NCBI GenBank assembly: GCA_035084275.1
Contig: CM068771.1
Coordinates: 1,178,001-1,242,000, forward strand
Reading direction: 5' to 3'
Length of the DNA: 64,000 nt
Origin: Hydrolagus colliei
Lineage: Eukaryota
Shown piece after piece: positions 2,872-63,569 of the stretch. Made by a program: the position numbers and the translations under genes. Under the pieces are notes generated by a model. That model saw only the letters and a list, made by a program, of their open reading frames with translations, ran no database searches and was not told the origin of the DNA. Numbering within the stretch: the stretch's first letter is position 1; every line of letters begins with the position of its first letter.

Positions 2872-3773
2872 TGAACTTGTTGTCCATAACAGTGCTGTGC
2901 CGAGGGCAGTGTGGGCTGAGTCAGTCCGTCACTCTGTATCTGGTGGCGATGGCGGGGGCAGACCTGCTGGTCCTGATCATCGACGTTATCCTCAACCGTA
3001 TCAACAACATGTACTTCCCAATCAGCTTCCTGCAGCTCACACCAATGTGTCGTGCCCGTGTGTGCCTGCTGTCTGCCTGCACCGATGCCTCGGTCTGGCT
3101 CACCGTGACCTTCACCCTCGATCGCTTTGTGGCCATCTGCTGCCCCAGCCTCAAGCTTCGCTTCTGCACAGAGAGGAGCGCGTCCTACATCATCGGAACA
3201 GTCGCTACAGTTTGCCTCCTGAAGAACATCCCCTGGTACTTTGTCTTTGTGCCCATGGTAGTATTGGGGAACCAGCCATACTTCTGCGTTAGCATGCCAT
3301 CGTTCTATGATTCGGCAGCTTGGAGCCGATTTCTGGCAGCTCATCGTATGCTCACACCACTTGTACCCATGCTGCTGATCATTGTCCTCAATTCCATCAC
3401 TGTCAGGCATATCCTGGTGAGTGGTCGAGCAAGGAAGAGGCTGCTGGCAGGTGGATTGGGAGGAGGCCGTGGGGAGGAGGACCCAGAGATGCAGAGCCGC
3501 AGAAGGTCCATTGTTCTGCTGTTCGCCATCTCTGGCAGCTTTGTCCTCCTGTGGCTGACGTACATTGTTCACTTCCTGTTCTGGCCCACGGTCACCTACA
3601 ACAGCAATACAGAAGGAGCGAACGATAGTGTGTACATCCTGCAGGAGTCGGGTGCAATGCTGCAGATCCTCAGCACCTGCACAAACACTGCCATTTATGC
3701 TCTGACACAGACACGCTTCCGAGAGCAAATCCATGCCGTGCTCACCATTCCCTGCCGGCTATTCTGTAAATAA
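2872..3773 (+). CDS. GPR139/GPR142-like class A GPCR (locus g1), large coding exon 2; exon 1 not found in window
   Basis: Acceptor (ttg)n-ttacag|TG AAC (phase 1); 902-nt open exon with ADLLV (TM2), SVWLTVTFTLDRFVAICCP (TM3), FVLLWLT (TM6), STCTNTAIY (TM7). Confidence 0.88.
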
Positions 3774-4152
3774 AGCCCTCGGCATTTCTGATACCTTCTC
3801 TGTTTGAATGTGTTTGTTTCCAAATATCTTCATGCACTGGCATCCCTCTAGCTGGTTAGACACCATCCTTCCAAATAAGCAAAAAAATAACACCTATGCA
3901 TCAGGTCAGGTGTTTGACACATGGATCTCGAAGAACATTAGCCACAGATGTGTAAAATCCATAACTTGGGGGGACCCCGGTCTACGCATTGTGGTAATTG
4001 CTGGAGTTTAAGCAGCTGAATTGTCACACCTTGCTGCTGAGAACAGTGTCTGGCAAGCTTTCCTGGTACAAGTCCAGATAGGACCACCCTACCTGCCAAG
4101 GCTTTGACTGCAATGTTAACAATAATAAGCATTACATTTGATATAGCCCCTT

Positions 4153-4471
4153 GTGGAGCTCCAGTAGAGGGGTTAGAGAACTTGCATTACAAGCATGAAA
4201 CCTGTAATGTTTCACAGGTTTGAAATCAGGGTAAAACCTTGGGCAAGTTTCCTTATTCCACATGTCTAATAATACTCCGTCAAAAAGAACACAATAATAA
4301 TGTTGGTCATTTCAATCCGTGACTGTTCGTGAGACACTACTGTGTGCAATTGCCGGCCATGTTTTGCTCACAAATATACAGTCAATTCATTTTACAGTAT
4401 GTAAAGTGCTTTCAGACGTCGATAAAATGTGAAAAGCGCTATACAAATACAAGGATTATTATTATTATTAT
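4153..4471 (+). mobile_element. tRNA-derived SINE (Deu-domain-like core, L2-like 3' tail)
   Basis: Degenerate A/B-box head, 'ccttgggcaagtttcctta' core, 'aagcgctat...caaggattattatt' tail shared with many copies. Confidence 0.8.
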
Positions 4472-4479
4472 TGTAGCAA

Positions 4480-4800
4480 TAAGGGTCGGGGTAGGGACAG
4501 GGGTATGGAAGTAGTAAATGGAGGAGAGTTAATGTCTTGAAGATGAAGAGGAAGGTGGACTTGAACAAGGAAAGGGAGGAAACAAGGTGAAGCAATTGCA
4601 GGATGGAGCTCCAGAGTGTGGGGACAGAGAGGCTGAAAGCCTAGCCACTGATGGTAGAGCAGTTTGGGCAGAGGACGTGGAGCATGACAGAGCCTACTGA
4701 ATGGAATGATGGGCAGGCTGATAGGGAGATAGCAGGTCAGAGAGATAGGTGGGGGCAAGGCCGTGAATGGTCTTGAAATTGAGGATGAGGATCTTGAAAC
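4480..4800 (-). mobile_element. L2 LINE 3' region fragment
   Basis: Reverse complement of the 'ttcaagatcctc...gctttcagc...ctggaactc' block seen in other L2 remnants here. Confidence 0.6.
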
Positions 4801-4907
4801 ATGGTGGATGAATCATATACATTAAAGAATCCATACAATTCATACAATACAAAAAATACAACATATATACAATCCATACAATATAACAAAAAGAAGATTG
4901 GATACCA

Positions 4908-6745
4908 ATTTTTTTACCAACATATTAAGAGTAAAAGGTTGGTCAACGATTGGGTGGGGCCAATTAGGGACCTAGGAGGAAATCTCATTGTGGAGGCAGA
5001 GGGCATGGCTGATGTACTGAATGAGTACTTCACCTCTGTCTTCACAAAAGAAAAGGATACAGCCAATGCCATGGTATTGGAGGAGAGGGTAGGAGAAATG
5101 GATAGAATAATTATAACCAGAGAGGAAGTTCTAAAAAGGTTGACGTCGCTCAAGGTGGATAAGTCACCTGGTCCGGATGGGATGCACCCTAGGTTACTAA
5201 GGGAGGCACGGGAGCAAATAGCAGGGACTCTGGCCACGATCTTCCAATCTTCCTTGGACACAGGGGTCGTGCCAGAGGACTGGAGGATAGCTAATGTTAC
5301 TCCCTTGTATACAAAGGGGCAGAAGGACAAGCCTGGTAACTACAGACCAGTCAGTCTAACGTCGGTAGTGGGCAAACTTCTAGAGTCCATAATCAGGGAC
5401 AAGGTAGATCTTCACTTAGAAAGATAGAGGCTAATAAAGGACAGTCAACATGGATTTGTTAAAGGCAAATCTTGCCTTACAAATCTGATAGAATTTTTTG
5501 ATGAGGTAACGGAATGGGTGGATAATGGTAGCGCAGTTGATGTAGTTTACATGGACTTTCAAAAGGCATTTGACAAAGTGCCACATGAGAGACTTATTAT
5601 GAAATTAAAGGCCCATGGCGTAAAAGGGACAGTGGCAGCGTGGATCCACAACTGGCTGCGAGACAGAAAGCAGAGAGTTGTAGTGAGCGGCTGTTTTTCA
5701 GACTGGAGGGAAGTGAGCAGTGGTGTGCCACAGGGATCAGTTTTGGAACCATTGCTGTTTGTAATCTACATCTATGATCTGGACTTGGGTGTACGGAGTA
5801 CAGTTTCTAAGTTTGCAGATGACACTAAGTTAGGGAGAATAGTAAATAGTGAGGAGGATAGTAGCCATCTGCAAGAGGATATAGACAAATTGGTAAAGTG
5901 GGCAGACACATGGCAGATGAAGTTTAATGCAGAGAAGTGTGAGGTGATGCATTTTGGGAGAAGAAATGAAGGGAGGCAATATAGGCTAGATAGTACAATT
6001 TTCAATGGTGTGAAGGAACAGAGAGACCTGGGGATTTGTGTTAGTGACTCGTTGAAGGTGGCAGGACAGGTAGACAAGGCTGTTAAGAAGGCATATGGGA
6101 TACTAGGCTTTATAAATAGGGGTATAGAGTACAAAAGTCAGGAAGTGCTGACTAACCTCTATAGGACTTTGGTGAGTCCTTAGCTGGAATACTGTGTTCA
6201 ATTCTGGTCACCAAACTACAGAAAGGATGTGAAGACATTGGAAATGGTACAAAGAAGATTTACTAGGATGGTGCCAGGATTGAGGGACTTCAGCTATGAG
6301 GAGAGGCTAGATAGGCTAGGGTTATTCTCTCTGGAGCAGAGAAGATTGAGGGGAGACCTAATAGAGGTTTATAAGATCATGAGGGGTTTCGACAGGGCAA
6401 ATAGAGAAAAACTATTTCCAATCGTGGGCGAATCTGTGACTCGTGGTCACAGATTTAAAATAGTTTCAAGGCGAAGTAGAGGGGAGCTGAGGAGAAATTT
6501 TTTCACTCAGCGAGTTGTTCGAATCTGGAATGCATTGCCTGAAAAGGTGGTGGAGGCTGATTCGATAACAACTTTTAAAAGCGAATTAGATCTTTATTTA
6601 GGGAGAACAGGTCTATTAGGCTATGGGGAGCGGGCAGGGCAGTGGGATTGAATCACTGTTTTCAAAGAGCCGGCACAGACTAGATGGGCCGAATGGCCTC
6701 CTTTTGTGCTGTAAAATTCTATGAATCTATGAATCTGTGAATCTA
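4908..6745 (+). mobile_element. 5'-truncated CR1-clade LINE (RT domain, C-terminus and 3' UTR)
   Basis: ORFs at 4801/5518/6229 share one frame, broken by TAGs at 5425 and 6181; motifs KSPGPDGMHPR, NYRPVSLTS, DFQKAFDKVPH, GVPQGSVL, KFADDTKL; ends in a (GAATCTAT)n tail. Confidence 0.93.
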
Positions 6746-7769: not shown

Positions 7770-7859
7770 GACCATGTGGCCTAATGGATAAGGCGTCTGA
7801 CTTTGGACAACTTGTCTAAAGCCATCAGAACATTGCAGGTTCGAGGCCTGCCATGATCT
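7770..7859 (+). pseudogene. Intron-containing tRNA-Arg-body gene with anticodon changed to TTG; probable pseudogene
   Basis: Paralog of 18871-18959; anticodon TTG at 7803-7805, 17-nt intron 7807-7823, B-box GGTTCGAGGCC, acceptor-stem mismatch. Confidence 0.8.
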
Positions 7860-9392: not shown

Positions 9393-9465
9393 ACTGAAAT
9401 AGCTCAGTTGGGAGAGCGTTAGACTGAAGATCTAAAGGTCCCTGGTTCAATCCTGGGTTTTGGCA
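9393..9465 (+). tRNA. tRNA-Phe-GAA: tRNA-Phe(GAA), degenerate copy (possible pseudogene)
   Basis: Matches vertebrate Phe-GAA but has G1>A and several CpG>TpG changes in the acceptor and T stems; followed by TTTTT. Confidence 0.75.
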
Positions 9466-9710: not shown

Positions 9711-10120
9711 TCATAGAATCATAGAATGTTACAGCACAGAAGGAGGCCATTCGGCCCATCGAGTCTGTGCCTGCTCTTTGACTGAGCAAGTCACTTTCAT
9801 TAACCCCAATCACCAGCTTTCTCCCCGTAACCCTGCAAACCCATCTTCCCCGGATACCTATCTAGTTCTATCTTAAAAGCTGCTATCGAATCGGACCTCA
9901 CTACCCTTTCAGGCAGATCATTCCAAATTTGAACAACTTGCTGAGTAAAAAAAAATATTCTAACCTCCCCTCTGCTTCTTTTGGTAGATATCTTAAGATG
10001 GTGACTATGGGTCACAGACACACTTACCAGAGGAAACAATTTTCCTTATCTAGCCTGTCGAAACCGTTCATGATCTTGAAGACTTCTATCAGATACCCGC
10101 GTAACCTTCTCTGCTCTACA
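9711..10120 (-). mobile_element. CR1 LINE 3' end
   Basis: Minus ORF 'RGEVRIFFFTQQVVQIWNDLPE' resembles the C-terminus of the 4908-6745 element; (TTCTATGA)n tail. Confidence 0.85.
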
Positions 10121-11102: not shown

Positions 11103-11192
11103 GGCTCGTTGGTCTAGGGGTATGATTCTCGCTTTGGGGTTGCAACTAAATAAACATGCGAGAGGTCCCGGGTTCAAATCCCGGATGAGCCC
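11103..11192 (+). tRNA. tRNA-Pro-TGG: tRNA-Pro(TGG) with 18-nt intron (11139-11156)
   Basis: 72-nt vertebrate Pro body GGCTCGTTGGTCTAGGGGTATGATTCTCGCTTTGGG|TGCGAGAGGTCCCGGGTTCAAATCCCGGATGAGCCC split after G37. Confidence 0.9.
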
Positions 11193-13298
11193 AAAATGTA
11201 GACAAATGTTGCCTATGTATCTCGCTTGATTGTGTTTTGAAAAAGTAAACTTTTGTTGTGAGTCAACATAGTAACTAACAAATTCAAATGGGGTAATAGG
11301 CATCTGGTACAGCATCAGTGGTAGAGAGGTAGCATGCAAGATTACTATTGTTTTGAGCTAGGTTTGGATTTGGGCGATTGCTCAATATAGTGGAGTTCCT
11401 GTAGCTCAATGGTTAGAGCAGTTGCCTTAAAAGCGTGAGACCTGTGTTTGAATCAGGCAGCTCTTGGGCAAATTTCCTTATTCCACATGCCTAATAATAA
11501 TCCATCAGAGAGTTGTTGAGATTCAGGGTATACGGACTTAAACCTCAGTCTGCAATGTTATGCTGGATGAGATGAGGACTACCAGCAGATGAGGTGAAGC
11601 TGAGTGACATCTTGGAGTACGGTCAGAGCAACTCACCATGGTAGGGAGATACCGGGGCATGGCGAAGTTTGAACGTAAGTGTATGAACCTTGAAATTGAT
11701 CCCTTATACAACAGGTAGTGAATGGAGCCTTGCCTCCGACTCCGACTTCTTCAAGGATCAACTGAAGATCTTTGACTCTTTGAACGTGTCTTTGGCCATC
11801 TTCCTACTCAACCCTCACCTAGTCCACCATCCTCAATCATTCCCCAATCCCCGACCCACGATCAGGTCAAAATCCCTTACATTCCAACATCTTAGGATGA
11901 CCCTGACATAAAAGTAGCTGTACAAATATGGTGTTGTGTTTTCTCCATGAAACAATCGATCATAAGAAGAGGTGCTGTACAGTGTACGTTGATGATTTTC
12001 TTTTTCATCAGAACACCCATCATCTCCTTGTTTTCTCCAGGTTGCTTATGATAGTGGACCATTCCATCTTCCTTGATCTCTTTACTTTCCTCTGTGGCAC
12101 ATAACCTTATTGGAGTCATGTAGCTCGATGGCTAGAGCACTCGCCTCACGGGCAAGAGATCTGGGTTTGATTCCTGGTAGGGCAAAACGTTTGGAAAGCT
12201 TCATTATTCAACAAGCCTGACAATCATCAAAATGGCCTGCAAAGATGTGCTAAAACCAACAACAAACAGTAGCAGTAAAATGACATTATAAATTGGCTTT
12301 CACGTCTGTGGGATGTCCTGGGTGAAAGGAAGACTTTGAGAGAATTTGGTTGAAAGATACAAGGAGTATTAGTCACTAATCTTGGGTTCATGGATGACAA
12401 AAACTTCAGCCTGGACACTGCAATGAGAAGGGATTCAGGAGACACTGATGATACCCATCCCTCATTAAGGGCAGCCAGGTCTCAATGCAGGTAGTGATGG
12501 TCAACTAGTGGCCCTATCTGGACAAGCAGTGGGAAAGTTTGCTGGACAGAAAACTATGCGGTTTTAGATGGTAAGTGTGCAGCAGTTACTCCAACACATG
12601 ACAGGTTCCCCAAGCCTTAACTCTTGCCAAACTGTGCTGAATACTTCCGAAAGTGGGTAAGCAGAATGCATCCCCACAGGGAGCGAGTATGCATTCCTAT
12701 GTATGTAGCGCAGGCTCTTGATGCATTGAGGCACCAACGGGTACAGCAAAGGAATTTCCTCTGACCTATTTGTAAATTTCAGCATCAAGCCATCAGGTGA
12801 ATTTGCAGCATAAATGGGAAGTGACTGCACAGAAGAGTAAGGTGCAGGTTGAACAGAACCAAGACATGGGGCTCTTGAGTGTGCATTGGCATAACTGTTG
12901 TACTTTACCAGCTTCAACTGCAGAGCTAGTCATTGAATATAATGCTGCACAATTTCATTTCGATAAGTCGATGTGTTATAGCTTTGTTGTGCTTGAGAGA
13001 ATCCAAGTGGGAATAAGCGCTGATGCCATTGACTGGACCAATTGGCCATTTCCTGCCGTTGAGCCATTCTGGCAGGTCTGTCAATCACTGGGTCCTGGGG
13101 TCTGTCTCAGGAGGAAAACAAGCAAGTTAGTCACAGAGTCACAGTTTGATTCTCTGGTTTCATTGCTAAGCAACAACCGTGAAACCAGCTCAGCTCCCAG
13201 AAGATTGTGTTACCCCAGGAGAGTAGTGCTTAGTTTACTAGAAACAATATCTGCGCAGTTCTGGTTGATTAGACTGTTGGGATTTCTCTCTTTTAGTG

Positions 13299-13353: not shown

Positions 13354-13456
13354 ATGAAGAAATATCACAGCTTTTCAGAAAAGGTGTACCAACCAAGCAC
13401 AATTTTCCGGATAATGTACATTTACTACCCTTTTTTGGCTGTCGTTGCGGTTCCAG
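13354..13456 (+). CDS. GPR139-like GPCR g2, coding exon 1
   Basis: MKKYHSFSEKVYQPSTIFRIMYIYYPFLAVVAVP followed by G|GTAC phase-1 donor; 'YYP.L...vP' is the TM1 start. Confidence 0.85.
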
Positions 13457-15831: not shown

Positions 15832-16733
15832 TCAACCTGGTTGCGATTGTGATCCTATCCCGGGGAAAGTGTGGTCTCTCCAGATGCATCACTTGTTACC
15901 TGGTGTCCATGTCATCAGCCGATCTATTGGTTATCATCAGCGACGTGATACTGACTCGACTGAATTATCTTTATTTTCCAATTTGCTTCCTGGACCTGAC
16001 TCCTATGTGTTCGTTTGGAACCTGCCTGCTGTGTGCAGCCACTGACTGCTCTGTGTGGCTCACAGTGAGCTTCACCCTTGATCGCTTCATTGCCATTTGC
16101 TGTCCGAGGCTGAAACTGAAATATTGCACAGAGAGAAGCGCGGCTGTGGTGATAGGCACAGTTTGCGCTCTGAGCTGTTTCAGGAACATTCCCTGGTATT
16201 TTATTTATCAGCCTTGGTATACCATTGATAATTTGCCGTGGTTTTGCAAGACTAAAGAAAGCTATTATGGTTCCCGGGCCTGGGAAATCTACTCCTGGTC
16301 TTATACCATACTAACCCCTTGCGCTTCCTTTGTTCTGATTTTGCTGCTGAACACACTGACCATCAGACACATATTAGCGGCAAACAGCGTCCGGAGGAAT
16401 CTTCTTGGCAACAGCAGCACTGGCAATGCTAACGACACAGAGATGGTCAACAGGAAAAAATCCATTGTAATTCTCTTCGCTATATCTGGGAGTTTTATAC
16501 TTTTATGGATGACATACGTTATATATTACTTATATAGACAAATTGCTGAGTATTTTTCTTACTCGGGCTACAATGATCCCGTCTATGTTCTGTATGAATG
16601 TGGATGGATGTTGCAGCTTCTCAGTAGCTGTACTAACACGTGTATTTATGCTGTTACCCAGGCTAAATTCAGAGACGAATTGAAAAAAGCAGCTAAATAT
16701 CCATTAAAATTCATACGTAAAGTGGCTCAATAG
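15832..16733 (+). CDS. GPR139-like GPCR g2, coding exon 2 (spliced protein 334 aa)
   Basis: Acceptor ctttcttatag|TC AAC is in frame with exon 1; DCSVWLT..TLDRFIAICCP, FILLWMT, SSCTNTCIY. Confidence 0.92.
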
Positions 16734-18870: not shown

Positions 18871-18959
18871 GACCATGTGGCCTAATGGATAAGGCGTCTG
18901 ACTTCGGTAAAACATGTAAAGCCATCAGAAGATTGCAGGTTCGAGTCCTGCCATGGTCT
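18871..18959 (+). tRNA. tRNA-Arg-TCG: tRNA-Arg(TCG) with 16-nt intron (18908-18923)
   Basis: Perfect acceptor stem GACCATG/CATGGTC, A box TGGCCTAATGG, anticodon TCG 18904-18906, B box GGTTCGAGTCC, T5 terminator near 18971. Confidence 0.9.
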
Positions 18960-20049
18960 CAGAGAGATACTTTTTCTATGAAGTTAGCATATTGTAAATC
19001 AGTCACCTGTATTTGTCTCTGACATATGTGTTGCCGTTCAAACAATTATCTAGTTTGTGGTGCTGGTCACACCAATGTTGCCATTCCCTTGGGCTAATAT
19101 TGCCATTGTCAATGCTTATCTCCTCCTTGTAGACACCATGTTTGCTCGTTAAATGTGAGTATGCTTCCCCTTTTAAAATATTGGAGGAAGTTCTCGATTC
19201 ATACGTTTCTGAAGTCATAATATGACCGAAGTGACAGCAAGTTTTCACGCAAAATTGTAAATCATGACTAGGTTAATCTGTCTCCTATAGGCTCTAATCT
19301 CTATGTTCTAACCCTTCCACCTTTACAAATTATGAGAAACAAATAAGTGAGGAGTCGTAGTTATATCCATGTTATAATAGTTAAGGGAATAAATGATAAA
19401 TGGATATATACATAATATATACATGGATATATACATAAGAAATGAATAAAGGCAGAATGCATTTGGGTAGAAATATAAGAGGGTGGAAGGAATAACAACA
19501 AAATGTCATTGATAGGCACCTTTCACATCAGCAGGATGTCCCAAGGCACTGATCATGAGATGGGGCAGCGAAGGATAGTGGGAGGATGGCTGAAGGCTTG
19601 ATGGTTGGATAATGCCTTGGACCACCCTACCCACCTTAGGGTTTTGGCTCTCCGTGTTAATAATATTAATAAGAATCCTTATTTTTCATATACACTTTAT
19701 TATGACTGGAATCCTGGTTGCCCTGTTTGGTGGTCTGATTCCCAAGCTGGATGTGGCTCCAAGACACTGCCCACTAAGAGCTTCTTTGCCAGTTTTGGAA
19801 GCTCTAAAACACTAATCTATCAATGCATCATTATGATATGAATCTTTCAATTTGATATTGCACCTTATCATGTCTTTGAGACATCTCAAAACACCACAAA
19901 AATATACTGTAAAGTGAATTGACTATATTGTATGGGAGAATCGTAACACCGAATTGCATGTAGCAGTGTCTTACAAACAGTCGTGGATTGAAATGACCAA
20001 TTTTTATTATTGCCCTCTCTGCTCTCATCTGAAAAATGAAACCCAGTAC

Positions 20050-21462: not shown

Positions 21463-22553
21463 TTACGTAGTACTAAGGATTACGTGTAGTAATCGATGGT
21501 GTCTCTGGAGATGCCCTGGCTGCGTGAAACTCCTTCCACATTCACCACAAGTATAAGGTTTCTCCCCTGTGTGTGATCGATGATGTCTCTGCAGGTCCCC
21601 TTTACTTCTGAAACTCTTTCCACATTGAGCACATGCATACGGTTTTTCTCCCGTGTGTGATCGGTAATGTCTTGGGAGGCTTCCTGAATGTCTGAATGTC
21701 TTTCCACATTCGGTACATTTATACGGTCTCTCTCCTGCGTGTGATCGTTGGTGTGTCTTGAGGATCCATAAACGTGTGAAACTCTTGCCACATTCAGCAC
21801 ATTTATGCCGTCTCTCTCCTGTGTGTGATCGATGGTGTTTCCTCAGGTCCCCTGACTGTATAAAACTCTTTCCACATTCAGCACAATGATATGGTCTCTC
21901 ACCTGTGTGTAACCTCCGGTGTCTCTGAAGGTCACTTGATGTTGCAAAGCTCTTTTCACATTCAGCACATGTATGTGATTTCTCTCCCGTGTGTAATCGA
22001 TGGTGTCTCTTGAGGTAATCTGATGCAGCAAAACTCTTTCCACATTCGGCACATTTATATGGTCTTTCTCCTGTATGTAATCGTTTGTGTATCTGGAACA
22101 TTCCTGAATGTGTGTATCCTTTTCCACAATCAACACATCGATACGGTCGCTCTGCTGTGTGTGATTGCTGATGTTTCTGGAGATGCCCTGATTGAGAAAA
22201 ACTCCTCCCACATTCTGCACATTTATATGGTCTCTCTCCTGTGTGTATTCGCTGGTGCCTTTGGAGAAACTTTAAATGTTTGAATCTCTTTCCACATTGG
22301 GCACATTCATATGGTCTCTCTCCTGAGATCGATCGCTGGCGACTCTGCAGAGATGTTGTTTGCGTAAATCTCTTTTCCACAACAGATCCATGACACTTTA
22401 TCTGCTGAGAAGAATCATTTCCCTTAGCAGCAGATTGTGTTGCTGATGTGTTTCGATGAAGATTGGGATACCTTCTGCTGTGCTTCTGATGGATCGAGGC
22501 ATGAGTAAATACAACATTACAATGAGGGCGAGGGTGAGAAATAGAATCATCCA
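21463..22553 (-). CDS. Terminal exon of PRDM9-like (PR/SET-less) C2H2 zinc-finger gene; 10 C2H2 fingers
   Basis: Acceptor tttcttttctccccaaag|TG (phase 1); degenerate finger HPRPHCNVVFTHASIHQKH, spacer, then 10 CxxC-x12-H fingers with TGE(R/K)P-type linkers. Confidence 0.9.
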
Positions 22554-35061: not shown

Positions 35062-35134
35062 GCCGAAATAGCTCAGTTGGGAGAGCGTTAGACTGAAGAT
35101 CTAAAGGTCCCTGGTTCAATCCCGGGTTTCGGCA
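35062..35134 (+). tRNA. tRNA-Phe-GAA: tRNA-Phe(GAA), intact
   Basis: GCCGAAATAGCTCAGTTGGGAGAGCGTTAGACTGAAGATCTAAAGGTCCCTGGTTCAATCCCGGGTTTCGGCA; full cloverleaf. Confidence 0.97.
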
Positions 35135-35395: not shown

Positions 35396-35487
35396 GGCTC
35401 GTTGGTCTAGGGGTATGATTCTCGCTTAGGGCGTTAGCAACTGAAGGAACATGCGAGAGGTCCCGGGTTCAAATCCCGGATGAGCCC
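35396..35487 (+). tRNA. tRNA-Pro-AGG: tRNA-Pro(AGG) with 20-nt intron (35432-35451)
   Basis: Same 72-nt Pro body as 11103, anticodon AGG 35428-35430, split after G37; TTTT at 35491. Confidence 0.9.
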
Positions 35488-39367: not shown

Positions 39368-40272
39368 CTAAACATGGAAAGGAGAGTGGGCCAGTAAGCG
39401 AGTGATGGGGTAAATGAAGATGGATTTCAGGCTCTGCCTGAATTGGGTCTGGGTCACACCATAGATGACGGTGTTGGAGCAGGAGCTGAGAAACTGCAGC
39501 ATGTAACCCACATGCTCAGCGATGGTGAAAGGGCTGCTGTAGTCAGACTGCATGAGTTTGGCCTTTGTCATCAGCGCACACATGTAGGTGACCAAGTAGG
39601 TCAACCACAGTAACACGAAGGTCCCCGAGATGGTAAAGAGCAAGATTAGAGATTTCTGCCGACTCTCCATCTCCTCGTCCTTCAACGTCACTGATCCCCG
39701 CAGACGCTGGCGCACAGCGCTGGCCATTAGAACATGCCTGATGGTCAGAGAGTTGAAGAGGAGAATGACGATGAAGGGAAGCATTGGATTTACAATCATA
39801 TGAATCAAGTAAAATGACCTCCCGCCAATCGTATTATAAGAGCTGGGCTTGATGCTGCAGAACCAGGGCTGCCCATTGATCACCATCAGCGGTTGGTACA
39901 TAAAATACATGGGGATATTTATTGCGCTTAAAAATGCACAGATTGTCCAGATCACCAGGCCCGCTGTCCTCTCGGTGCAGTATTTGGGTTTGAGCTTTGG
40001 GCAGCAGATGGCAATGAAGCGGTCGAAGGTGAACGCCATGGTCAGCCAGACAGAAGTATCAATTACGAAGAAGCGCAGTACAATGTGTACTCGGCACACG
40101 GGGGTCTGGAACAAAACAAAGTGCGGCAGGTGGAGCTGAAATGTCTTCCTCAGGATCACACCAATGAATATGACCAGCAGATCAGCAACAGCCATTGCGA
40201 CCAGGTAGCGGGTGACACATTTGGAGAGTCCACACTTTCCCTGGGCCAGGACCACAATGGTCACCGCGATCG
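39368..40272 (-). CDS. GPR139-like GPCR g3, coding exon 2 (spliced 321 aa)
   Basis: Acceptor tttcctgcag|CG ATC GCG; 905-nt open exon with DRF-IAICCP and SSCSNTVIY. Confidence 0.92.
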
Positions 40273-43810: not shown

Positions 43811-43871
43811 CAGGAAAGCCAATGATTCCCAGCGTAGGGTAAAACACCTTTTCTAGTTCTATTATTCCCAT
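43811..43871 (-). CDS. GPCR g3, coding exon 1
   Basis: MGIIELEKVFYPTLGIIGFP followed by G|GTATGT phase-1 donor. Confidence 0.87.
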
Positions 43872-43957: not shown

Positions 43958-44030
43958 TTTTATACCTGGGAGTCAGCTCTGCAGGGACTTTTATTGTTCA
44001 AGTAATAAATTAGTGGAAGAAACAACTGAG
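43958..44030 (-). promoter_or_regulatory. Conserved proximal promoter of g3 (TATAAAA, GCTGACTC, C/EBP-like and CAACTG motifs)
   Basis: Same motif order upstream of g4 (about 50291-50365) and g7 (about 60914-60986). Confidence 0.6.
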
Positions 44031-46670: not shown

Positions 46671-47575
46671 CTACACATGGTTATGTAAGTGGCTCAGTAA
46701 ACAAGTGATGGGGTAAATGAAGATGGATTTCAGGCGCTGCCTGAATTGGGTCTGGGTCACACCATAGATGACGGTGTTGGAGCAGGAGCTGAGGAACTGT
46801 AGCATGTAACCCACATGCTCAGCGATGGTGAAAGGGCTGCTGTAGTCAGACTGTAGGAGTTTGGCCTCTGTCATCAGCGCACACATGAAGGTGACCAAGT
46901 AGGTCAACCACAGCAACACAAAGGTCCCCGAGATGGTAAAGAGCAAGATTAGAGATTTCTGCCGACTCTCCATCTCCTTGTCCTTCAACGTCACTGATCC
47001 CCGCAGACGCTGGCGCACAGCGCTGGCCACTAGAACCTGCCTGATGGTCAGAGAGTTGAAGAGGAGAATGACGATGAAAGGAAGCATTGGATTTACAATC
47101 ATATGAATCAAGTAAAATGACCTCCCGCCAATCGTATTATAAGAGCTGGGCTTGATGCTGCAGAACCAGGGCTGCCCATTGATCACCATCAGCGGTTGGT
47201 AGATAAAATACATTGGGATATTTTGTGCACTTAAAAATGCACAGATTGTCCAGATCACCAGGCCCGCTGTCCTCTCGGTGCAGTATTTGGGTTTGAGCTT
47301 TGGGCAGCAGATGGCAATGAAGCGGTCAAAGGTGAAGGCCATGGTCAGCCAGACAGAAGTATCAAGGACGAAGAAGCGCAGCATAAGGTGCACACGGCAC
47401 ACGGGGGTCTGGAACAAAACAAAGTACGGCAGGTGGAGCTGAAATGTCTTCCTCAGGATCACACCAATGAATATGACCAGCAGATCAGCAACAGCCATAG
47501 CGACCAGGTAGCGGTTGACGCATTTGGAGAGTCCACACTTTCCCTGGGCCAGGACCAAAATGGTCACCGCGATCG
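46671..47575 (-). CDS. GPR139-like GPCR g4, coding exon 2 (spliced 322 aa)
   Basis: Acceptor tttcatgcag|CG; 905-nt open exon, close paralog of g3. Confidence 0.92.
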
Positions 47576-48361: not shown

Positions 48362-48595
48362 AAAAAAACCAGAAGTTGCTGGGAAAACTCAGCAGGTCAG
48401 GCAGCATTGATGGAGAAAGAAAAGTGAGTCAACGTTTCGGTACACATCACAAGTCAGTTCTGATGAATGGTCGTGGACCCGAAACATTGACTCACTTTCC
48501 TTTCTCCATAGATGCTGCCTGACCTGCTGAATTTTCCCAGCAACTTCTGTTTTTGTTTCGGATTTCCAGCATTTGGAGTATTTTGTGTTTTGTGT
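48362..48595. repeat. Fold-back (long inverted repeat) element, Penelope-associated type; half copies near 15360 and 45720
   Basis: Arms 48370-48440 and 48479-48549 are near-perfect reverse complements; absent from the g3 and g5 introns. Confidence 0.75.
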
Positions 48596-50144: not shown

Positions 50145-50208
50145 CAGGAAAGCCAATGATTCCCAGCGTAGGGTAAAACACTTTTTCTATTTCTATTATT
50201 CCCATCAT
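50145..50208 (-). CDS. GPCR g4, coding exon 1
   Basis: MMGIIEIEKVFYPTLGIIGFP followed by G|GTACGT. Confidence 0.87.
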
Positions 50209-51379
50209 TGTCAATGGTGTACTGTATTAGGCTGACACTGTTCTGATATTGAAGCCTATGAAGCTGCTCCCATCCATTCAGAGCTTCACCTTTTTATTCC
50301 TCGGAGTCAGCTCTGCAGGGACTGTCATTGTGCAATTAATAAATTATCTGTACAAACAACTGAGAATAAGTGGCTCACGCCATTCTAAACCAAATGTAGT
50401 TTTGTGTGTAGAAATAATTTCACAATAATTAAAAATATTAAATTGTTTGTTAGAGGCCAACCATCTCTCTCTGGATAACACTATATTATAAAGAGGAGAG
50501 ATGAATGGAGAGACCATTGTTTCATTTAGCTGGACAACACATGTAAAGTGGAATCGAGCTATACTGGCATAGCCAAACTATGCTGTGAAATGATTGATAA
50601 CAAGTTTTGGTCTTGACTGTGAATTCTTGAATTCGATAGTTTTTAAATAAATGAATGAAGAGTGAAAACAGAAAGTGTTGTATGTGCGTAATAACCCCCT
50701 AACCGAGGACTGGTCTCCCAATTCCAAACTGTTCATCGGATACTGCTGTGCAGAAATAGCAGCGACATTTTGCCCTGTCAAGCATGAGGTCAAGTGACTC
50801 TACAGTGAAGTCTGTGAAGTGTTTTGGTGAATGTCACCATGATGGAGGCCCACTGTTTTGTCTCCAACAAGCGCCTCCATATCTTGGGCGGTGACAAAAG
50901 CTTCATCCTCCAACGATAATGATGTGGAGCCAATACAGAAGCTCGGTGAGATGCTTGAACTCGGATGTACTTCATATACTTCATTCACGCCAAGACCCAC
51001 TCTACATTTCACCACTTCTGCAACATTACTTGGCCCAGCCACTGACTTAAACCACAAGCTGGAAATATTCACATAAAACAAAATGAATAAAAAATACAAG
51101 GATTGATAATGTGCAGCTTCCACTGCATATAGGCCTCCCCCATTCTTACCCGTTCACAATCCCTCCCTGTAGGTGAAGACATCAGCTGCACAATACTGGG
51201 TGGTAGGTGGCAGATAATCCAGTGTTTTGCAGCTGATGCCTTCTCCTACACAGGACTCCACAATCCTATCAATATCTTATCCTCACCTGACTCCACTGGC
51301 TGTCCATTATGAAACAACAATAACCGCAACCACGAAACACGAAAGGTACTCCTCCTTTCATATCGGGAGGATTTCCCAA

Positions 51380-52689: not shown

Positions 52690-52980
52690 CAAATTCCTTG
52701 TTGATCAAACACTTGGTTGCATACAATCAGAATTATAATCTCACAAGGAGGCTTTTGGGTCCATGTTGGAATGCTCGGTCCAAATTATTCCCGCTCCGCC
52801 ATGAGCTCACCAAAGGTCTGCACATTTTCCCTCCCCAAATAATTATCAACATCTCTCTTGAAAGTTGTTATCAAATCGACTCCCATCAGCCATTCAGGCA
52901 ATGCATTCCAAATACGACATACTCGCTGTGTGAAGAAAAACTTTTCTACTTCTTTTGACAACCATTTTAAACTGACCATT
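52690..52980 (-). mobile_element. CR1 LINE 3' end, degenerate
   Basis: Minus ORF 'FFFTQRVCRIWNALPE'. Confidence 0.75.
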
Positions 52981-54532
52981 CTATTCTTGTATCTTTCAGT
53001 GGCATTATTTCAGGGATGTGGATGAACGAAACTGTCCTAGATTTTGCCGTTACTTGAATTAATCCCAGGTCTCCCACGTGCAATGCAAATTCTCTAGGCA
53101 GGCAGCAGGCATGCAGGTCAGAAACTGGTCAGAAATGGTGAGTGTAGAAGAATAGAGTGGTCAATGTTATGGAAAGCAGCCCAGAATTTGAGAAAGTTGT
53201 TGAGAAACAGAAAGGCAATGGTCGTAGTTGGACAGATTGTTATTTTATTTACCTTGACCAGGGCTGAGTCGATGCTACGATCAATACAAAACCCAAAGTT
53301 TGAAGGGGTTGTGGGGTGAAGTTGGGAGAGGAAAGGCATAGTTGGGAAGCGACAATACACTCCACGAATTTGCACAGACAAGAAAAGTTTGGAATAGGAG
53401 GTATACAGAGAGCACCTGAGATTTGAGGGAATTGCTGCTGTACCAGGTTTACATCTATCAGTAAGTAATGGTGTGGGAGCTGACAGGGGCTCGTGTGTGA
53501 CAGTGGCTTGTGTATGACCAAATGCAAAATAGTTGTGGTTAAAGTCACCCAAGATTATGAGGAGTCCAGAACAGCATGCAGAAGGAGCACAGGAGGGTGG
53601 AGATGTCAGAAAGTGGAGGAAATTGGACATGGGGGAACCTTCGTGCAGGCTGATGGATAGCTAACAGCATTTGCAATGATCAGATCAGTGGAGGATTCAT
53701 AGGAGGGAACATAGGGCTGCTGTGATTACAGGAATGTGAGAAGAAGTGGAAGTTGGCAGGAGAGTGATAAGCTCTCTGAGAATCCGTCCGGCATGGAGGG
53801 CACTATATAAATCGAAGTTGTTGTTGTTGTTGTTGAGTTCAGCAACAAAGTGCAGTGAGCAGGAGAGGGTAAATAGGGGTTGATGCTGCAGCCAAATTCT
53901 CAATCTGAGACATGGAGAAATTTAACCAGTGAGGCATCGTCAGACTACACAAATTGAGACTGGGGAATGCTTGATGAAGCACTCCAATATGCAGGCAGAG
54001 GGAAATATGATCATGGCATTTTTGGAGGAACGCCGCAGAGTGACGGACATAGAGTAAAGATGTTTACAAACCTAACATGGAAGTGAAATGACCTGGTTTG
54101 ATTTGCATGAAGGGCAATGGCTTAGCAGTATTTCCTAGCACACCATGCTCTTTATACATCGCAATTAATTGGAGCGTGAAGGTTATTTAATCGGTGCTTT
54201 CTTTTCAAAGATAATAATCCTTCTAAATATGAATTGATCATTGTTAGTGATTGGGACATTGATTTGTGCAATTACTGCTTTCACATCCATAATATATAGT
54301 GAAATTTCACGTTAGAGAATATCTGGTACAGATACAATGGGCTGAATGGCCTTCTGTGCTCTGGACGTCTATGTAACATTCTCTGAACACTCCTTGAAAA
54401 GCATTGTTTGAAATGTATGATCGAAGTGATAATGCAACAAGCAAATGCATAGAACATTATTATAGTTTGCTGCCAGGCACAATCAAGTATGAGAAAAATA
54501 CATCTACAATTGTGTTTGTGACTTTCCTGCAG

Positions 54533-55433
54533 CGATCGCGGTGACCATTGTGGTCCTGTCTCAGGGAAAGTGTGGACTCTCCAAATGTGTCACCCTCTAC
54601 CTGGTCGCAATGGCTGTTGCTGATCTGCTGGTCATATTCATTGTTGTGATCCTGAGGAAGACATTTCAGCTTCACCTGCCAAACTTGCCCTTGTTCCAGA
54701 CCCCCGTGTGCCGAGTGCAACTTGTGCTGCGCTTCTTCGTCCTTGATATCTCTGTCTGGCTGACCATGGCCTTCACCTTCGACCGCTTCATTGCCATCCG
54801 CTGCCCAAAGCTCAAACCCAAATACTGCACCGAGAGGACAGCGGGCCTGGTGATCTGGACAATCTCTGCATTTTTAAGCGCAAAAAATATCCCCATTTAT
54901 TTTGTTCTCTAACCGCTCATGATGATCAATTCACAGCCTTGGTGCTGCATTGTCAAGCCCAGCTGTTATACTGCTATTGGCTGGAGGGCGTTTATCTTTT
55001 TGCATACTGTTGTAAATCCAATGCTTCCCGTCATAGTTATCCTCCTCTTCAACTCTCTGACCATCAGGCAGGCTCTACTGACCAGCGCTGTGCGCCAGCG
55101 TCTGCGGGGACCATTGAAGTTGAAGGCCGAGGAGATGGCGAGTTGTCAGAAATCCATTATACTGCTCTTTGCCATCTCGGGGACCTTTGTGTTGCTGTGG
55201 CTCACCTACATGGTCACCTTCAAGTAATGTTGACAGAGGCCAAACTCGATCAGGCTGACTATAGCAGCGCATTCACCATCGCTGAGCATGTGGGTTACAT
55301 GCTGCATTTCTTCAGCTCCTGCTCCAACACTGTTATCTATGGTGTGACCCAAACCCAATTCAGGCAGCGCCTGAAATCCATCTTCATTTACCCCATCACT
55401 CGCTTACTGTGCCACAAAAATAAGCATGTTTAG
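54533..55433 (+). pseudogene. Inverted GPR139-like pseudogene g5 (exon 2 only)
   Basis: Nonsense TAA at 54910-54912 (Gln in g3/g4), frameshifting deletion near 55225, CC>RC after DRF, no exon 1 found upstream. Confidence 0.9.
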
Positions 55434-55684
55434 CTGTGTTGCCCTCTTTGGTCTTCACAACATTACATTCATTCACAGATTTGCACTATCTTAGAAATGG
55501 ACCAGCATCTCTGAAATAATCATTTTAAAATGGATTATAGAGCTCTTTGAAAATGCATTTTATTGTTTGAAAATAGATTTTGTGCAGTGAGATATCTTTA
55601 ACTCAAATCGGAACTTTGACTTTCAATAAAATTAAAGACGTCAGAGCAACCTGAGGTTTTATGTACTCTACATGTAAGAAGAAG

Positions 55685-57831
55685 AAAAATGAAGTCCAGA
55701 GCAAGGTGCAGGCGACACATGGGGGTCTGGAACAAGGGCAAATGCGGCAGGTGGAGCAGCAATGTCTTCCTCAGGATCACACCAATGAATATGACCAGCA
55801 GATTAGCAACAGCCATTGCGACCAGATAGGGGGTGACACATTTGCAGAGTCCACACAGTCCCTGTGCCAGGACCACATTGGTCAGTGCGATTGCTGCAGG
55901 AAATTCACAATCACTATCACAAATGTTTGAACTCTGGGCATGTGATTGGCGCCGGCACAAGTTTTATCATGCTTGACATCAACAATAATGTATAATAAAA
56001 GTTTGATAATTTTGTGATGTCACTTAGATGTCACAAAATGATAAACTGCATAGATTAATCATAAAGTAATGATAATAATACCCAACTTATATCAAAGTGT
56101 TGTAGTAATTGTTGGCAATTGATATGGTGCTGAGGAAGTCGATCAGAATTCTCAAATTGAGGAGGGGTTCACTCATTACTAATGGAAAACTTCACAGAAT
56201 AGTACAACATGGTGGAAACACAGAATGAGGCCATTTGGGGTTTTGTGCATGTGTTGGATATTGTAAACATTAAAGTTAACCTTTTTGTGTGTGAGTGCCA
56301 GCAGCTAATTGTGCAAATAGTGAGCTCCACACAGTCATGCATTGTGTGACCAAATGAGATTGTTTGGGTTGAACATTTCTCCCGGAAAAGTAAGCTACAG
56401 TTATCCAGACTCCAATTTATTGCTAGACAAACAGAGGAATGAACAGAGGAATCAAACCGGGTCACTTCACTTTCAAGCGAGTAATCTAGCAACTGCACTC
56501 AAGGATTTGCCCACTCAAACTGTTGGAATCAATATAATCTAGTGAGACTGACCTGTTGGAGAGATTCCAAACACAGGCTAAACGGCAGTAATCTAAGGCA
56601 CACGTGAGGAAAAATCAGTACCCTGGCTTATCAAAGTAATTTGGGGAGAAATAAATTCTAACTGGCCTTGTTTCCAAACTGAAAATGGTTGAGCGAGAAG
56701 CTTGACAGGCAGTGATGTATGTGGCAACTTATTGTACTCAATCAATTGGGTTAAACAATGACAAGCATCGAAGTCAAAATCTGCGATTCAACAAACTTTG
56801 ACATATTTCAAATTGCATATCAAAATAAATAACTGGACCACCTGTGACAAGGGAGATATTTGCACTTCATTCCAGATGATGAGAAATTTCCATGTTTAGG
56901 GAATAGGTTAAATAATTGGTGATCTATTTGGTTTAGAATTTCTAAAACACTCGAGACATAGTCAGTTGTATCAGATATCCCTCTCAACAAATTCACATTC
57001 AGAAGCTGAAATCTGAATAGCATTTCAGAAGCCACAAAGCACTTGACAGATGTGAATTGCTTGTATAATATTGCAGGAAATGCTAGACAGCCAAGAGAGC
57101 ATAACAGTGAAGGATATACAGTCGTGGAACGAGTGACAAAATAATTAGTGTAACTGTTATCTTTGAAGAGATTATCGCTACTGAAAAATTCGTCCACAGA
57201 TTATCTAACCAGTTTCCTGCTTACTGCTAGTGAAGCAGAGGGTTTCGATCATGGAAACTTGTCTAACATTCCGTCTTGCCCTTGAGATTTTACACCTGGA
57301 AAATCGAAGCACTGTAGCTCAGTAGTTAGAGAACATGCCTTCCATGGGTTCCATTCCAGGCATGTCAGGGCGAAACCTTAGCAAGTTTATTTACTCCACA
57401 TGCCTAATAATAATCCATCAAAAACAATACTAAATGGTGATTCCAACACACTTCTCTTTGTGGGATAGTTAATATGTGATCCTTTCAACTATGAACTCTT
57501 GTAGCAGAATATAACGATTTTGCTCCAGTGACTTGTGCATCCGAATTGTAAAGTGTGTTATATTTTGTGACAGCAGTTGGTTATTTCACTGCCGGGCTGT
57601 CACCCACTCTCTCTCTCTCTCTGCATGCACTTGCAGACCATCCTCTTAATATTGTGGATCAGGTCAGTTTATCTTCAGAGGCCAACACATTCTATTGCCA
57701 GGTGAACAGATACAGGTGTGGAGCAACGAGGCATGGCTGTACATCAGTGAACTCACTTGCAACAACGTACCAGGACAACCAATGATTCCTAGTGTAGGAT
57801 ACAACACATTTCATACTTCTATGATTCCCAT
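55685..57831 (-). pseudogene. Truncated GPR139-like pseudogene g6 (exon 1 57771-57831; exon 2 stub 55893 to about 55685)
   Basis: Exon 1 MGIIEV*NVLYPTLGIIGCP has TGA at 57811-57813; exon 2 stops at the start of TM3; promoter module missing. Confidence 0.88.
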
Positions 57832-58163: not shown

Positions 58164-59068
58164 CTAAACGTGGTTATGTGAGTGGCCCAACAAGCGAGTG
58201 ATGGGGTAAATGAAGATAGATTTCAGACGTTGCCTGAACTGGGTTTGGGTCACACCATAGATGATGGTGTTGGTGCAGGAGCTGAGGGACTGCAGCATGT
58301 AACCCACCTCCTCAGCGATGGTGAAAGGGCTGCTGTAGTTGGACTGTGTGACCTGCTCATCTGTCACCATAGCGTACAGGTAGATCAACATATAGGTGAG
58401 CCACAGCAACACGAATGTCCCCGAGATGGTAAAAAGCAAGATTATGGATTTCCGCCGACTCTCCATTTCCTCATCGCTCCCCTTCGCAGTCCCCCTTAGA
58501 CGCTGCCGCACCCTGCTGGACACGAGCACTTGCCTAATTGTCAGAGAGTTGAAGAGGAGGATAAGGATGAAGGGAAGCAGTGGATTTACAGTCAGGTCTA
58601 GAAAGGCAAAGACATTCCATCCAAGAGCAGTATAACATTTGGGCTTCGTCATGCAGAACCAGGGCTGCAAATTGATCATCATCTTCGGTTCATACATAAA
58701 GTAGATGGGGATGTTCTCCAAGCATAAAAATGCACAGATTGTCCAGATCACCAGGCCCGCTGTCCTCTCGGTGCAGTATTTGGGTTTGAGCTTTGGGCAG
58801 CAGATGGCAATGAAGCGGTCGAAGGTGAAGGCCATGGTCAGCCAGACAGAGATATCAAGGACGATGCATCGCATCATGATGTGCATGCGGCACACGGGGG
58901 TCTGGAACAAGGGCAAATGCGGCAGGTGGAGCAGAAATATCTTCCTCAGGATCACAGCAATGAATATGACCAGCAGATCAGCAACAGCCATAGCGACCAG
59001 GTAGCGGTTGACACATTTGGAGAGTCCGCAGATTCCCTGGGCCAGGACCACAATGGTCACCACGATCG
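58164..59068 (-). CDS. GPR139-like GPCR g7, coding exon 2 (spliced 322 aa)
   Basis: Acceptor tttcatgcag|CG ATC GTG; 905-nt open exon with family motifs. Confidence 0.92.
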
Positions 59069-60768: not shown

Positions 60769-60832
60769 CCGGAAAGCCAATGATTCCCAGTGCAGGGTAA
60801 AACACCTTTGCTACTTCTATGATTCCCATCAT
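60769..60832 (-). CDS. GPCR g7, coding exon 1
   Basis: MMGIIEVAKVFYPALGIIGFP followed by G|GTACGT; TATAAAA at 60914-60920. Confidence 0.87.
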
Positions 60833-62664
60833 TTTCAAGCTGTACTGGCTTCTGCTGGCACTGTTCTGCTGCTGACAATGAGAACCTCCTCCCAACCCTT
60901 CACAGTTTTCCCCTTTTATAACTGGGAGTCAGCTGGGCTGTGACAGTGATTGCGCAAGTAACAAATCATCTGAACACACAACTGGGGGCAACCAATGCCA
61001 CGCTTTTCTGCATTGAATGAAATGTTTTATGATCAGTAGCAATAAACAGAGGAGCAAATAACCATTCCGTCCCAGCTGTGCAGGAAGGAAACTGTATGGT
61101 CTTCTGCGCAGTTGATTGGAGTATTTATGCAATCCTGGCTAATGTCCATGTGGAATTGCAAACAATTTCCTAATCCGGATTCCTCTCCTTCACGAGTATG
61201 CGTTTGTGTGTGTGTGAAGAAAATCTGCAGAGGTCAAGCACAATTATTAATAATATTTATAATTTCACATTATGGAAGTGAATGAATGATGCTTCAAGCG
61301 GACTTTGTTTAGCCACATACCCACCTCTGAACACTCAACACCACTCATGTAACTTTTAATTTGGGAAGTAATTAGATTATGAGGAGTATGGAAACAACAA
61401 CGAAAACAAGAACAACAATACTTTTGGGCAATTCACTTACTCCATTCGCCTAAAAATAATCTGTCCGAAAACACTTGATATTAAAAAAATTGTTCGTTTC
61501 AATCCACAACTATATTTTGGGAAACTGCTCTCCGCAGTTCGCTGCAGTATTTCGCCCACAACCATAGCCAATTCACTTTACAGTATATTCTGTGAAGCGA
61601 TTTGAAACGTCAATGGGATGTGAAAAGTGCTATGTCAACATGCAAGGATTATTATTATGTTGTACGTAGCTGGCGAGTCACTGTTTCACACCTGAATTGG
61701 GGTCAAGGTCAGGGATTTTTCATGGAAATTATGAGACTGTGACGAATGGAACCATCAATGAACAGGGTCCTGAGGCAGGACTTGAATGAGGCTTGGGCGT
61801 GGGCATGTCTGATGGATTGCAGGTTGACTTCCAGAGGTCAGTCTTTTAAAACTCAATTTGAGAAACATTTCATCACTCTGGCGATAGTGAATTTACAGAA
61901 CACTCAAACGCAGATGCTGTGGGTGCTCAGTCATTGAACACATTCAAGGCTGAGATCAATAGCTTTAAAAGCTAAAGTGTTTAATGGGTATGAGGATATG
62001 GCAGTTAATTTGAATTAGGTGATTGATTGATGAATCAAAGTGGAGGGACTTGAGCCGGGATTTCAACGAGTCAATGGAGCGGGCGACATGATGGAATTTT
62101 GAAATGGTGGCAGAGTGGCTGAAAGCACCTGCCAATGGTGGGGATGGGCGGGTTGTGGACATGCAGCACCCGTTTTGATGCGGGACTTGTAGGAGGCGAG
62201 GGAGGGGGCGAGGTGAAAAGACTGCGATGTGGAGTGTCAGAGGTTGGGGGCAGAGTGGCTAGAACCTGCTGAGAGGAGAAGATGGAAAGGTTGATAAAGG
62301 GTTAGAAAATCACGGATACAGTTTGGGGCGAAGGTGTAGTGGGCCTTGAGTGTGAGCACCAGTTTCGTGAATTGGATCCTGTGATGATTGAGAGCCAATG
62401 GATCAACGGGAGTATAGGAGTGTTGGGGGTCACGTAGTTTGGAACAGTGGAAAATTCTGCATTGAGTCAATGATATCTAACTGTACAGATTACCACATGA
62501 AACTATGACAGGATGCGCCAACTTCAAGAGTGAAGCACACAATATAGGGTTCATTATTATTTCAATCATACATTGAGCAGCAGAGCTAAACATTATTGTA
62601 ACATTATTTATGTTACAATAATTTATAACATTTATAAATTACATGTTTAATTATTTTCACATAA

Positions 62665-63569
62665 TCAAATATTATGATGTGAATGGCGCAGAAAGTGATT
62701 GATGGGATAAGTAAAGACGGATTTCAGGCGCTGTCTGAATTGGGTCTGGGTCACTCCATAGATGAAGGTATTGGTGCAGGAGCTGAGGGACTCCAGCATG
62801 AAACCCACCTCCTCAGCTATGGTGAAAGGGCTGCTGTAGTCAGACTGAAGTAGCTTTGCCGCGGTCATCATCGCATACATGTAGGTGACGATAAAAGTCA
62901 TCCATAGCAACACAAAGCTGCTCGAAATAGTAAAGAGCAGGATTATAGATTTCTGCCGACTCTCCATCTCCTCGTCCCTCCGCTTTGCAGCCCCCCTTAG
63001 ACGCTGCCTCACCCTGCTGGCCACCAACACCTGTCTGATGGTCAGAGAGTTGAAGAGGACAATGAGGATGAAGGGAATCAGTGGATTCACAATCATGTCA
63101 GTAAAGGCAAAGACTCTCCAGCCAAGAGCAGTATAACAGCTGGGCTTGACAGTGCAGAACCAGGGCTGTCCATTGATTATCATCCTCATTTGGAATGCAA
63201 AACAGAGGGGGATGTTCTCCAAGCATAAAAATACACAGATTGTCCAGATCACCAGGCTCGCTGTCCTCTCAGTGCAGTATTTGGGTTTGAGCTTTGGGCA
63301 GCAGATGGCAATGAAGCGGTCGAAGGTGAAGGCCATGGTCAGCCAGACAGAGGTTTCAAGTACGATTGAGCGCAGCATAAGGTGTACTCGGCAAACGGGT
63401 GTACGGAACAAGGGCAAGTTTGGCAGGTGGAGCAGAAATGTCTTCCTCAGGATCACAGCAATGAATATGACCAGCAAATCAGCAACAGCCATTGCGACCA
63501 GGTAGCGGGTGACACATTTGGAGAGTCCACACATTCCCTGGGCCAGGAACACAATGGTCACCGCGATCG
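62665..63569 (-). CDS. GPR139-like GPCR g8, coding exon 2; exon 1 lies beyond the window
   Basis: Acceptor ttttctgcag|CG ATC GCG; 905-nt open exon. Confidence 0.9.

Follow-up and report, generated by a model that had tools for sequence, protein, structure and literature searches.

The stretch of Hydrolagus colliei DNA analysed here (the window; 64,000 nucleotides (nt) of contig CM068771.1, assembly GCA_035084275.1) contains eight loci, numbered g1 to g8 along the forward strand, for seven-transmembrane (7TM) G-protein-coupled receptors (GPCRs) resembling the orphan receptor GPR139. As judged by homology, this cluster is one sample of a large, old, chondrichthyan-wide receptor family, whose members keep a common cytoplasmic face and differ in the ligand pocket. 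We favour, with some reserve, its interpretation as a chemosensory receptor repertoire.

With the g2 protein as query, 2,235 clusters (at 90% identity) with E<=1e-10 were obtained among 3,065 candidates. Taxonomy was assigned for the best 120 of these 2,235 clusters. Every one of the 120 is chondrichthyan, and the name probable or putative GPR139 is attached to 114. By hand count, Heptranchias accounts for 48 of the 120 (on 23 contigs that differ in length) and Heterodontus for 25; such per-species counts may be inflated by isoforms and are deflated by the restriction to the best 120 of 2,235. A profile search of 50%-identity representatives gave 138 matches at E<=1e-30. The 54 full-length representatives used comprise 15 named chondrichthyan proteins, one without species shown, and others placed in the same clade by a quick tree; fragments and two-stretch matches were removed before the tree and entropy counts. 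Among the matches listed, the best g2 homologue is a Callorhinchus protein (79% identity), followed by those of sharks and rays at about 60%, and a second Callorhinchus protein pairs with the g3-g8 group (71-74%), a pattern that by itself points to a holocephalan source. Database models P0132, P0156, P0193, P0203, P0237 and P0326 fuse family members to neighbouring domains, namely hemopexin, hexokinase, sodium channel, integrin alpha, uromodulin-like and TRIM. These fusions probably result from missed short first exons and are a sign of copies scattered over many loci. Many database models have long N-termini, which were discounted as wrongly predicted first exons and neighbour fusions.

Each copy is about 320-335 amino acids long, with a very short N-terminus, a disulfide between transmembrane helix 3 (TM3) and extracellular loop 2 (ECL2), and an ECL2 hairpin; the motifs are DRF, W6.48 and NTxIY, which replaces NPxxY. 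The model of g2 exon 2 (predicted local distance difference test score (pLDDT) 78.7) folds as a class A receptor, forms a beta-hairpin in ECL2 and has Z scores of 21-23 to class A receptors; by Foldseek and VIA-align, this fold does not separate GPR139 from other peptide receptors. Class A residues are retained in a 60-row family alignment: D2.50 in 59 rows, R3.50 in all 60, W6.48 in 58 and Y7.53 in 57. N1.50, near-invariant in class A, is Ile at the start of exon 2 in g3, g4, g7 and g8 and Ser in the salamander proteins. Membership of the OR, TAAR, V1R or V2R families was rejected, as all six open window proteins match only 7tm_1, with no 7tm_4, V1R or 7tm_3. At position 3.32 the window proteins have L or R, and the aminergic D is not among the six commonest residues of this position in the 60 rows. 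R2.61, H3.28 and R3.32 are present in g3-g8, for which anionic or zwitterionic ligands are predicted.

Entropy in the 60 rows is 0.66-1.33 in the inner helix halves and intracellular loop 1 (ICL1) and 2.3-2.6 in the outer halves; outer and inner values are 2.38 and 0.66 for TM3, 2.55 and 0.99 for TM6, and 2.41 and 1.10 for TM7. Within the outer halves, 29 pocket positions, set by the general class A pattern, were compared with 44 others, numbering being by offset with bulges not modelled. In this 60-row set, pocket entropy exceeds that of the other positions (2.51 versus 2.00, permutation p=0.015). The relation is reversed among 20 amphibian orthologues (0.09 versus 0.42, p=0.0003), and the sturgeon protein keeps most residues of the amphibian pocket. 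These alignments show a cytoplasmic face that is conserved and a pocket that is variable in the family, and a pocket that is frozen in the likely orthologue. The combination suggests that the copies probably use one G-protein pathway and would respond to different small ligands.

The preliminary description had called the genes GPR139-like; their treatment as expanded GPR139/GPR142 receptors is not supported. GPR139 is indeed the nearest solved human receptor, being the best PDB match to the family profile (72 bits, E 4e-19) against 55 bits for the next PDB family and 39-47 bits for CCR/CXCR; with g2 alone as query, it falls behind GPR21 and PRLHR (31 bits). Common to the family and GPR139/GPR142 are a two-exon structure (described for GPR139 in PMC7318219), a short N-terminus and, in the profile alignment, W3.41, F6.44, W6.48 and the lack of Pro at 7.50. 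Features that define GPR139 are not found in the family, and amphibian, sturgeon, coelacanth, teleost, bichir, amphioxus and two Srw-like invertebrate-type receptors score higher on the profile (107-216 bits) than human GPR139. The g2 model is 20% identical to the GPR139 structure 7vug by structural alignment, compared with 70% between zebrafish and human GPR139 (PMC7318219). Unlike GPR139/GPR142, the family possesses the disulfide between C3.25 (56 of 60 rows) and the ECL2 Cys (57 of 60), both cysteines (Cys3.25 and Cys45.50) being reported absent from GPR139 (PMC5430874), together with longer ECL2 and ICL3 and dozens of copies per species rather than one. The GPR139 pocket set (F3.33, H5.42x43, W6.48, R6.51, N7.39x38, numbered by offset from anchors) is retained unevenly in the six window proteins: W6.48 in all six, H5.42 in three, F3.33 in two, and R6.51 and N7.39 in none. 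It is accordingly highly improbable that these are true GPR139/GPR142 duplicates still sensing L-Trp and L-Phe, even with the best PDB match, the GPR139 name on most of the best homologues, the two-exon structure, and F3.33, H5.42 and W6.48 kept in g3 and g4. By these comparisons the family appears to be a relative of GPR139/GPR142 and to stand outside that group.

Closer relatives were identified with the same family profile in two different searches, which scored salamander at 216 bits, coelacanth at 198, silverside at 172, amphioxus at 125-134, anchovy and bichir at 114-126, and two unnamed Srw-positive proteins at 107. The nearest invertebrate-type relatives, P0265 and P0267, pass Pfam Srw at 50 and 79 bits (cut-off 22.2), and Atlas neighbours carry 7tm_1 together with Srw. 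Srw is a nematode chemoreceptor family. By these scores GPR139 is the human class A receptor nearest to the family, which grades into Srw-like receptors, in keeping with the GPR139/142-MIPR/SPR/FMRFaR clan described in PMC8514136.

A careful tree of 36 rows, rooted on two long-branched rows, was built for these genes, and a quick tree for an 84-row set. The careful tree unites the 21 chondrichthyan rows in a single clade (support 98/93). Five amphibian and sturgeon rows join the clade with 92/80 support (not starred), while other fish and amphioxus genes fall outside both. Shark genes separate the branch of g1/g2 from that of g4/g7, which indicates that the radiation predates the chimaera-shark split. 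The lineage expansion first proposed therefore gives way to a chondrichthyan-wide family with an older radiation.

The amphibian/sturgeon gene, also annotated as 'probable GPR139' (P0214; Xenopus XP_031757816.1; Acipenser RXM35349.1), is likely the sister lineage of the chondrichthyan family. It has a D-x-E-M..R motif before TM6 and two ICL2 cysteines in common with the family, and 29-31% identity to the window proteins. Its pocket is nearly invariant (R2.61, Q5.42, K6.51, K6.55, R7.35, N7.39), unlike that of the family. A search with the amphibian gene gave 20 clusters, each from a different species, plus sturgeon (46%), and the gene is apparently single-copy, to go by one cluster per species. 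No amniote or teleost was found among the 25 matches (1,675 candidates) of this search, which met only four chondrichthyan members and is therefore blind below about 35% identity. With its charged, near-invariant pocket, this orphan (the P0214 cluster, P0296-P0315) is a candidate for de-orphanisation in Xenopus. Matches from Latimeria, silverside, anchovy and bichir may be the GPR210A/B genes, unnamed vertebrate orphans placed beside GPR139/142 in coelacanth, gar and fishes (Rinne et al. 2019, PMC6504862); P0223 and its cluster are candidates for the listed Ensembl coelacanth GPR210 proteins. These candidates are of low copy number and occupy a branch separate from the chondrichthyan and amphibian clade. 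A search of the amphioxus region returned nine matches among 499 candidates, eight named Branchiostoma and one unnamed. Amphioxus P0250, P0251 and P0284-P0289 form a small set of related receptors, with neighbouring locus tags in two species, that keeps R6.51 and W6.48.

Within the window, tblastn with the six long 7TM open reading frames (ORFs) identified eight 7TM loci and no more. An AG acceptor at a common phase-1 position in TM1 is present in every locus. The second exon is open in six of them, measuring 902 nt in g1 and g2 and 905 nt in g3, g4, g7 and g8, and all six ORFs pass Pfam 7tm_1 (70.6-85.5 bits, cut-off 30.5). At five of the eight loci (g2, g3, g4, g6, g7) a first exon was located, which has 61-103 coding nt and closes with a Pro codon plus one nucleotide before GT; the introns measure 1.7-3.5 kb. 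The six open and two broken paralogues, the phase-1 intron in TM1 after Pro and the second exon of 902-905 nt noted in the preliminary description are all recovered, with openness holding for exon 2, since no exon 1 was found for g1, g5 or g8; complete two-exon models number four. For g1, none of ten candidates running from ATG to a phase-1 GT in 1-2860 resembles a family exon 1, which may lie before the window start. No exon 1 was found for g5, where intron homology ends before reaching the exon-1 position, and that of g8 is expected beyond 64000, past the window end. A conserved promoter motif, a TGACTC element with a TATA-like box, has three copies in the window; they lie upstream of g3, g4 and g7, in each case about 100 nt from the ATG. 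Retrogenes or a repeat artefact were ruled out by the common intron and purifying selection.

The description of a birth-and-death cluster is supported. Homologous introns were verified among g3, g4, g5, g6 and g7, and g1 and g2 are divergent as reported, with 42-52% identity to all other copies. The g5 locus, formerly counted within the tandem subfamily, is inverted and not head-to-tail; its exon 2 carries a stop (54910-54912) and has lost 4 nt after nt 693. Homology of g6 is lost after about 210 nt of exon 2, exactly at the end of the inverted g5 block, so that a single rearrangement probably broke both genes. A recent origin, once ascribed to all of g3-g8, applies to g3/g4 (93% amino acid identity, synonymous divergence (dS) 0.085) and is ruled out for the whole group by the other pairs among g3, g4, g7 and g8 (74-78%, dS 0.31-0.39), whose divergence is about that between g2 and its Callorhinchus orthologue. 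Run X1 behaves as genomic DNA, possibly that of the source sample, with a 1273-nt contig over the g2 intron at depth 48 and no differences. Its summed depth over g2 exon 2 is 3,055-5,231, compared with 120-924 in most non-repeat upstream bins, and it gives contigs with 5-15% differences, a hint of further g2-like paralogues, summed depth not being copy number.

The ratio of nonsynonymous to synonymous rates (dN/dS) among intact window paralogues is 0.32-0.50; these copies are under purifying selection, and their coding function is constrained. In five older pairs dN/dS is 0.44-0.80 in the outer half and 0.19-0.40 in the inner half, while g3/g4 shows no such split (0.37 versus 0.49). Such values bear on the proposal that endogenous peptides or metabolites are the ligands of the copies, or that the copies are largely redundant, the family having drifted to large numbers in repeat-rich regions under relaxed pocket selection. 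The overall dN/dS is high, positive selection is not shown, two of the eight loci are dead, the fold with its ECL2 hairpin is that of a generic peptide receptor, and the amphibian pocket resembles a peptide site. Redundancy is countered by the low inner-half ratios of the older pairs and by deep lineages kept in both chimaeras and sharks, and drift alone would not raise pocket variability above that of neighbouring positions, as in the 60-row set. We consider this explanation quite improbable.

A chemosensory repertoire could have arisen as follows. By profile scores, the ancestor would be a gene of the GPR139/GPR142-MIP/sex-peptide/FMRFamide receptor clan, whose likely amphibian/sturgeon orthologue has kept a fixed, charged pocket as expected for one endogenous ligand. 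In cartilaginous fishes the gene was duplicated in tandem and in inverted orientation, with frequent losses, and a one-ligand endogenous receptor would in this way have become a many-ligand repertoire with a common G protein. Its putative use is the sensing of water-borne, dietary or body-surface chemicals in cells of the nose, mouth, gill, skin or gut. TAARs, vomeronasal FPRs, MRGPRs and nematode Srw receptors are co-opted GPCR repertoires. Like them, the family shows clustered birth-and-death, a variable pocket and a conserved signalling face, and would be derived from an endogenous-ligand receptor. It differs in its ancestral receptor (common only with Srw, via the MIP/FMRFamide clan), in the coding intron in TM1, and in that its repertoire role is predicted.

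The organisation of the family, with many clustered copies and turnover, is that of a repertoire, as was first suggested, and the four known olfactory families of sharks are small (OR 6-13, TAAR 3-5, ORA 2-4, V2R 8-43; PMC10116579). The size and monophyly of the family, its entropy and dN/dS contrasts, the conserved promoter motif of g3, g4 and g7, and the relatives that pass Srw also speak for a chemosensory role. Several points weigh against it. The pocket excess is weaker in the closer top-120 set and not significant (1.61 versus 1.30, p=0.06), and the sister-group support is below the starred threshold. Positive selection was not shown, pocket-only dN/dS (0.38-1.78) being based on about 18 synonymous sites, too few to rest on. 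In the catshark, olfactory neurons are reportedly microvillous and V2R dominates over the other three of the four families examined (PMC10116579), so that a further large olfactory family would have limited space. Tissue, cell type and ligand are assignments that we infer from sequence, and a variable pocket with a conserved cytoplasmic face would also fit immune receptor families.

This last point leads to a repertoire for immune or barrier surveillance, in which leukocytes, mast-like cells or nociceptor-like neurons would detect microbial or parasite products in the role of mammalian MRGPRs and FPRs. Clustering, turnover and pocket variability are equally expected under it. The TGACTC element, presumably AP-1-like, adjoins the TATA box in the g3/g4/g7 promoter, and a TRIM gene is fused to one bamboo-shark model (P0326). 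Cartilaginous fishes are reported to lack MAS1 and its relatives (PMC8455134). On the other side, the family shows no likeness to chemokine or formyl-peptide receptors above class A background, and the other fusions are with sodium channel, integrin, hemopexin and hexokinase; as these neighbours are unrelated, they do not point to immunity. An immune role appears rather unlikely. Returning to the chemosensory reading, we put forward more tentatively an extended form, in which the family might be an unrecognised chondrichthyan chemoreceptor family that outnumbers OR, TAAR, V1R and V2R, arose from a neuropeptide-type receptor of the GPR139/MIP/FMRFamide clan in parallel to nematode Srw, is expressed sparsely in olfactory or other sensory epithelia, and could explain part of the discrepancy between the chemical sensitivity of sharks and the small repertoire known from them.

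Apart from the receptor genes, the window contains a zinc-finger exon, tRNA genes or tRNA-derived elements, mobile-element remnants and two assembly gaps (Table 1). The tRNA elements include two Phe-GAA and two Pro, lie in duplicated flanks, and some are within SINE-like repeats.

Table 1. Receptor exons, associated motifs and other features of the window (positions within the 64,000 nt)
Feature	Positions	Strand	Remarks
g1 exon 2	2872..3773	+	open, 902 nt; tblastn, Pfam
g2 exon 1	13354..13456	+	34 codons + 1 nt, Pro end; donor GTACGT; intron 2375 nt
g2 exon 2	15832..16733	+	open, 902 nt; orthologue of Callorhinchus P0001 (79%)
g3 exon 2	39368..40272	-	open, 905 nt
g3 exon 1	43811..43871	-	20 codons + 1 nt; donor GTATGT
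g3 promoter motif	43958..43977	-	TGACTC element + TATA-like box, conserved
g4 exon 2	46671..47575	-	open, 905 nt; 93% amino acid identity to g3
g4 exon 1	50145..50208	-	donor GTACGT; intron 2569 nt
g4 promoter motif	50292..50311	-	
g5 pseudogene block	52967..55682	+	inverted part of intron, exon 2 (54533-55433) and 3' flank; without exon 1
g6 truncated exon 2	55682..55893	-	about 210 nt; cut at end of inverted g5 block
g6 exon 1	57771..57831	-	TGA at codon 7; promoter motif decayed
g7 exon 2	58164..59068	-	open, 905 nt
g7 exon 1	60769..60832	-	donor GTACGT; intron 1700 nt
g7 promoter motif	60914..60933	-	
g8 exon 2	62665..63569	-	open, 905 nt
C2H2 zinc-finger exon	21466-22611	-	open; located between g2 and g3; ten finger repeats of 84 nt
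tRNA genes or tRNA-derived elements	7770-7859, 9393-9465, 11103-11192, 12114-12185, 18871-18960, 33985-34056, 35062-35134, 35396-35487		
Long interspersed element (LINE) reverse-transcriptase remnant	4575-6740	+	RVT_1, stop-broken; presumably CR1-like
LINE fragment	9711-10116		
LINE fragment	52831-52938		near end of inverted g5 block
Self-complementary element	48362-48557		196 nt, 84%; resembles a miniature inverted-repeat transposable element
Partial copy of self-complementary element	45704-45810		
AC-rich minisatellite	31828-33074		around assembly gap 32142-32377
Second assembly gap	42209-42607		399 N, in g3 intron

No paper describing the family was found in literature searches, subscription papers being mostly outside their reach. 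The term GPR139 was not found in the main text of PMC11979771, in four of the five searchable supplementary files of PMC11589584, in the supplements of PMC3964593, or in 24 supplementary files of PMC8455134, which hold one GPR142 label. The main text of PMC6504862 does not mention shark, cartilaginous or Callorhinchus, and sharks are not mentioned in the portions consulted of the 2025 GPR139 review PMC12208981. The family is already visible in RefSeq names, and specialists may therefore know of it. Expanded GPCR repertoires with variable pockets are known; the ancestral gene and the lineage involved here are undescribed as far as these searches reach. Published accounts of cartilaginous fishes depict them as GPCR-poor (PMC8455134) and as equipped with few olfactory receptors (PMC10116579). 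A family of at least several dozen copies per species, carried under the transferred label 'probable GPR139', changes their GPCR count, and the apparently single-copy Xenopus orthologue would offer a route to the ancestral ligand.

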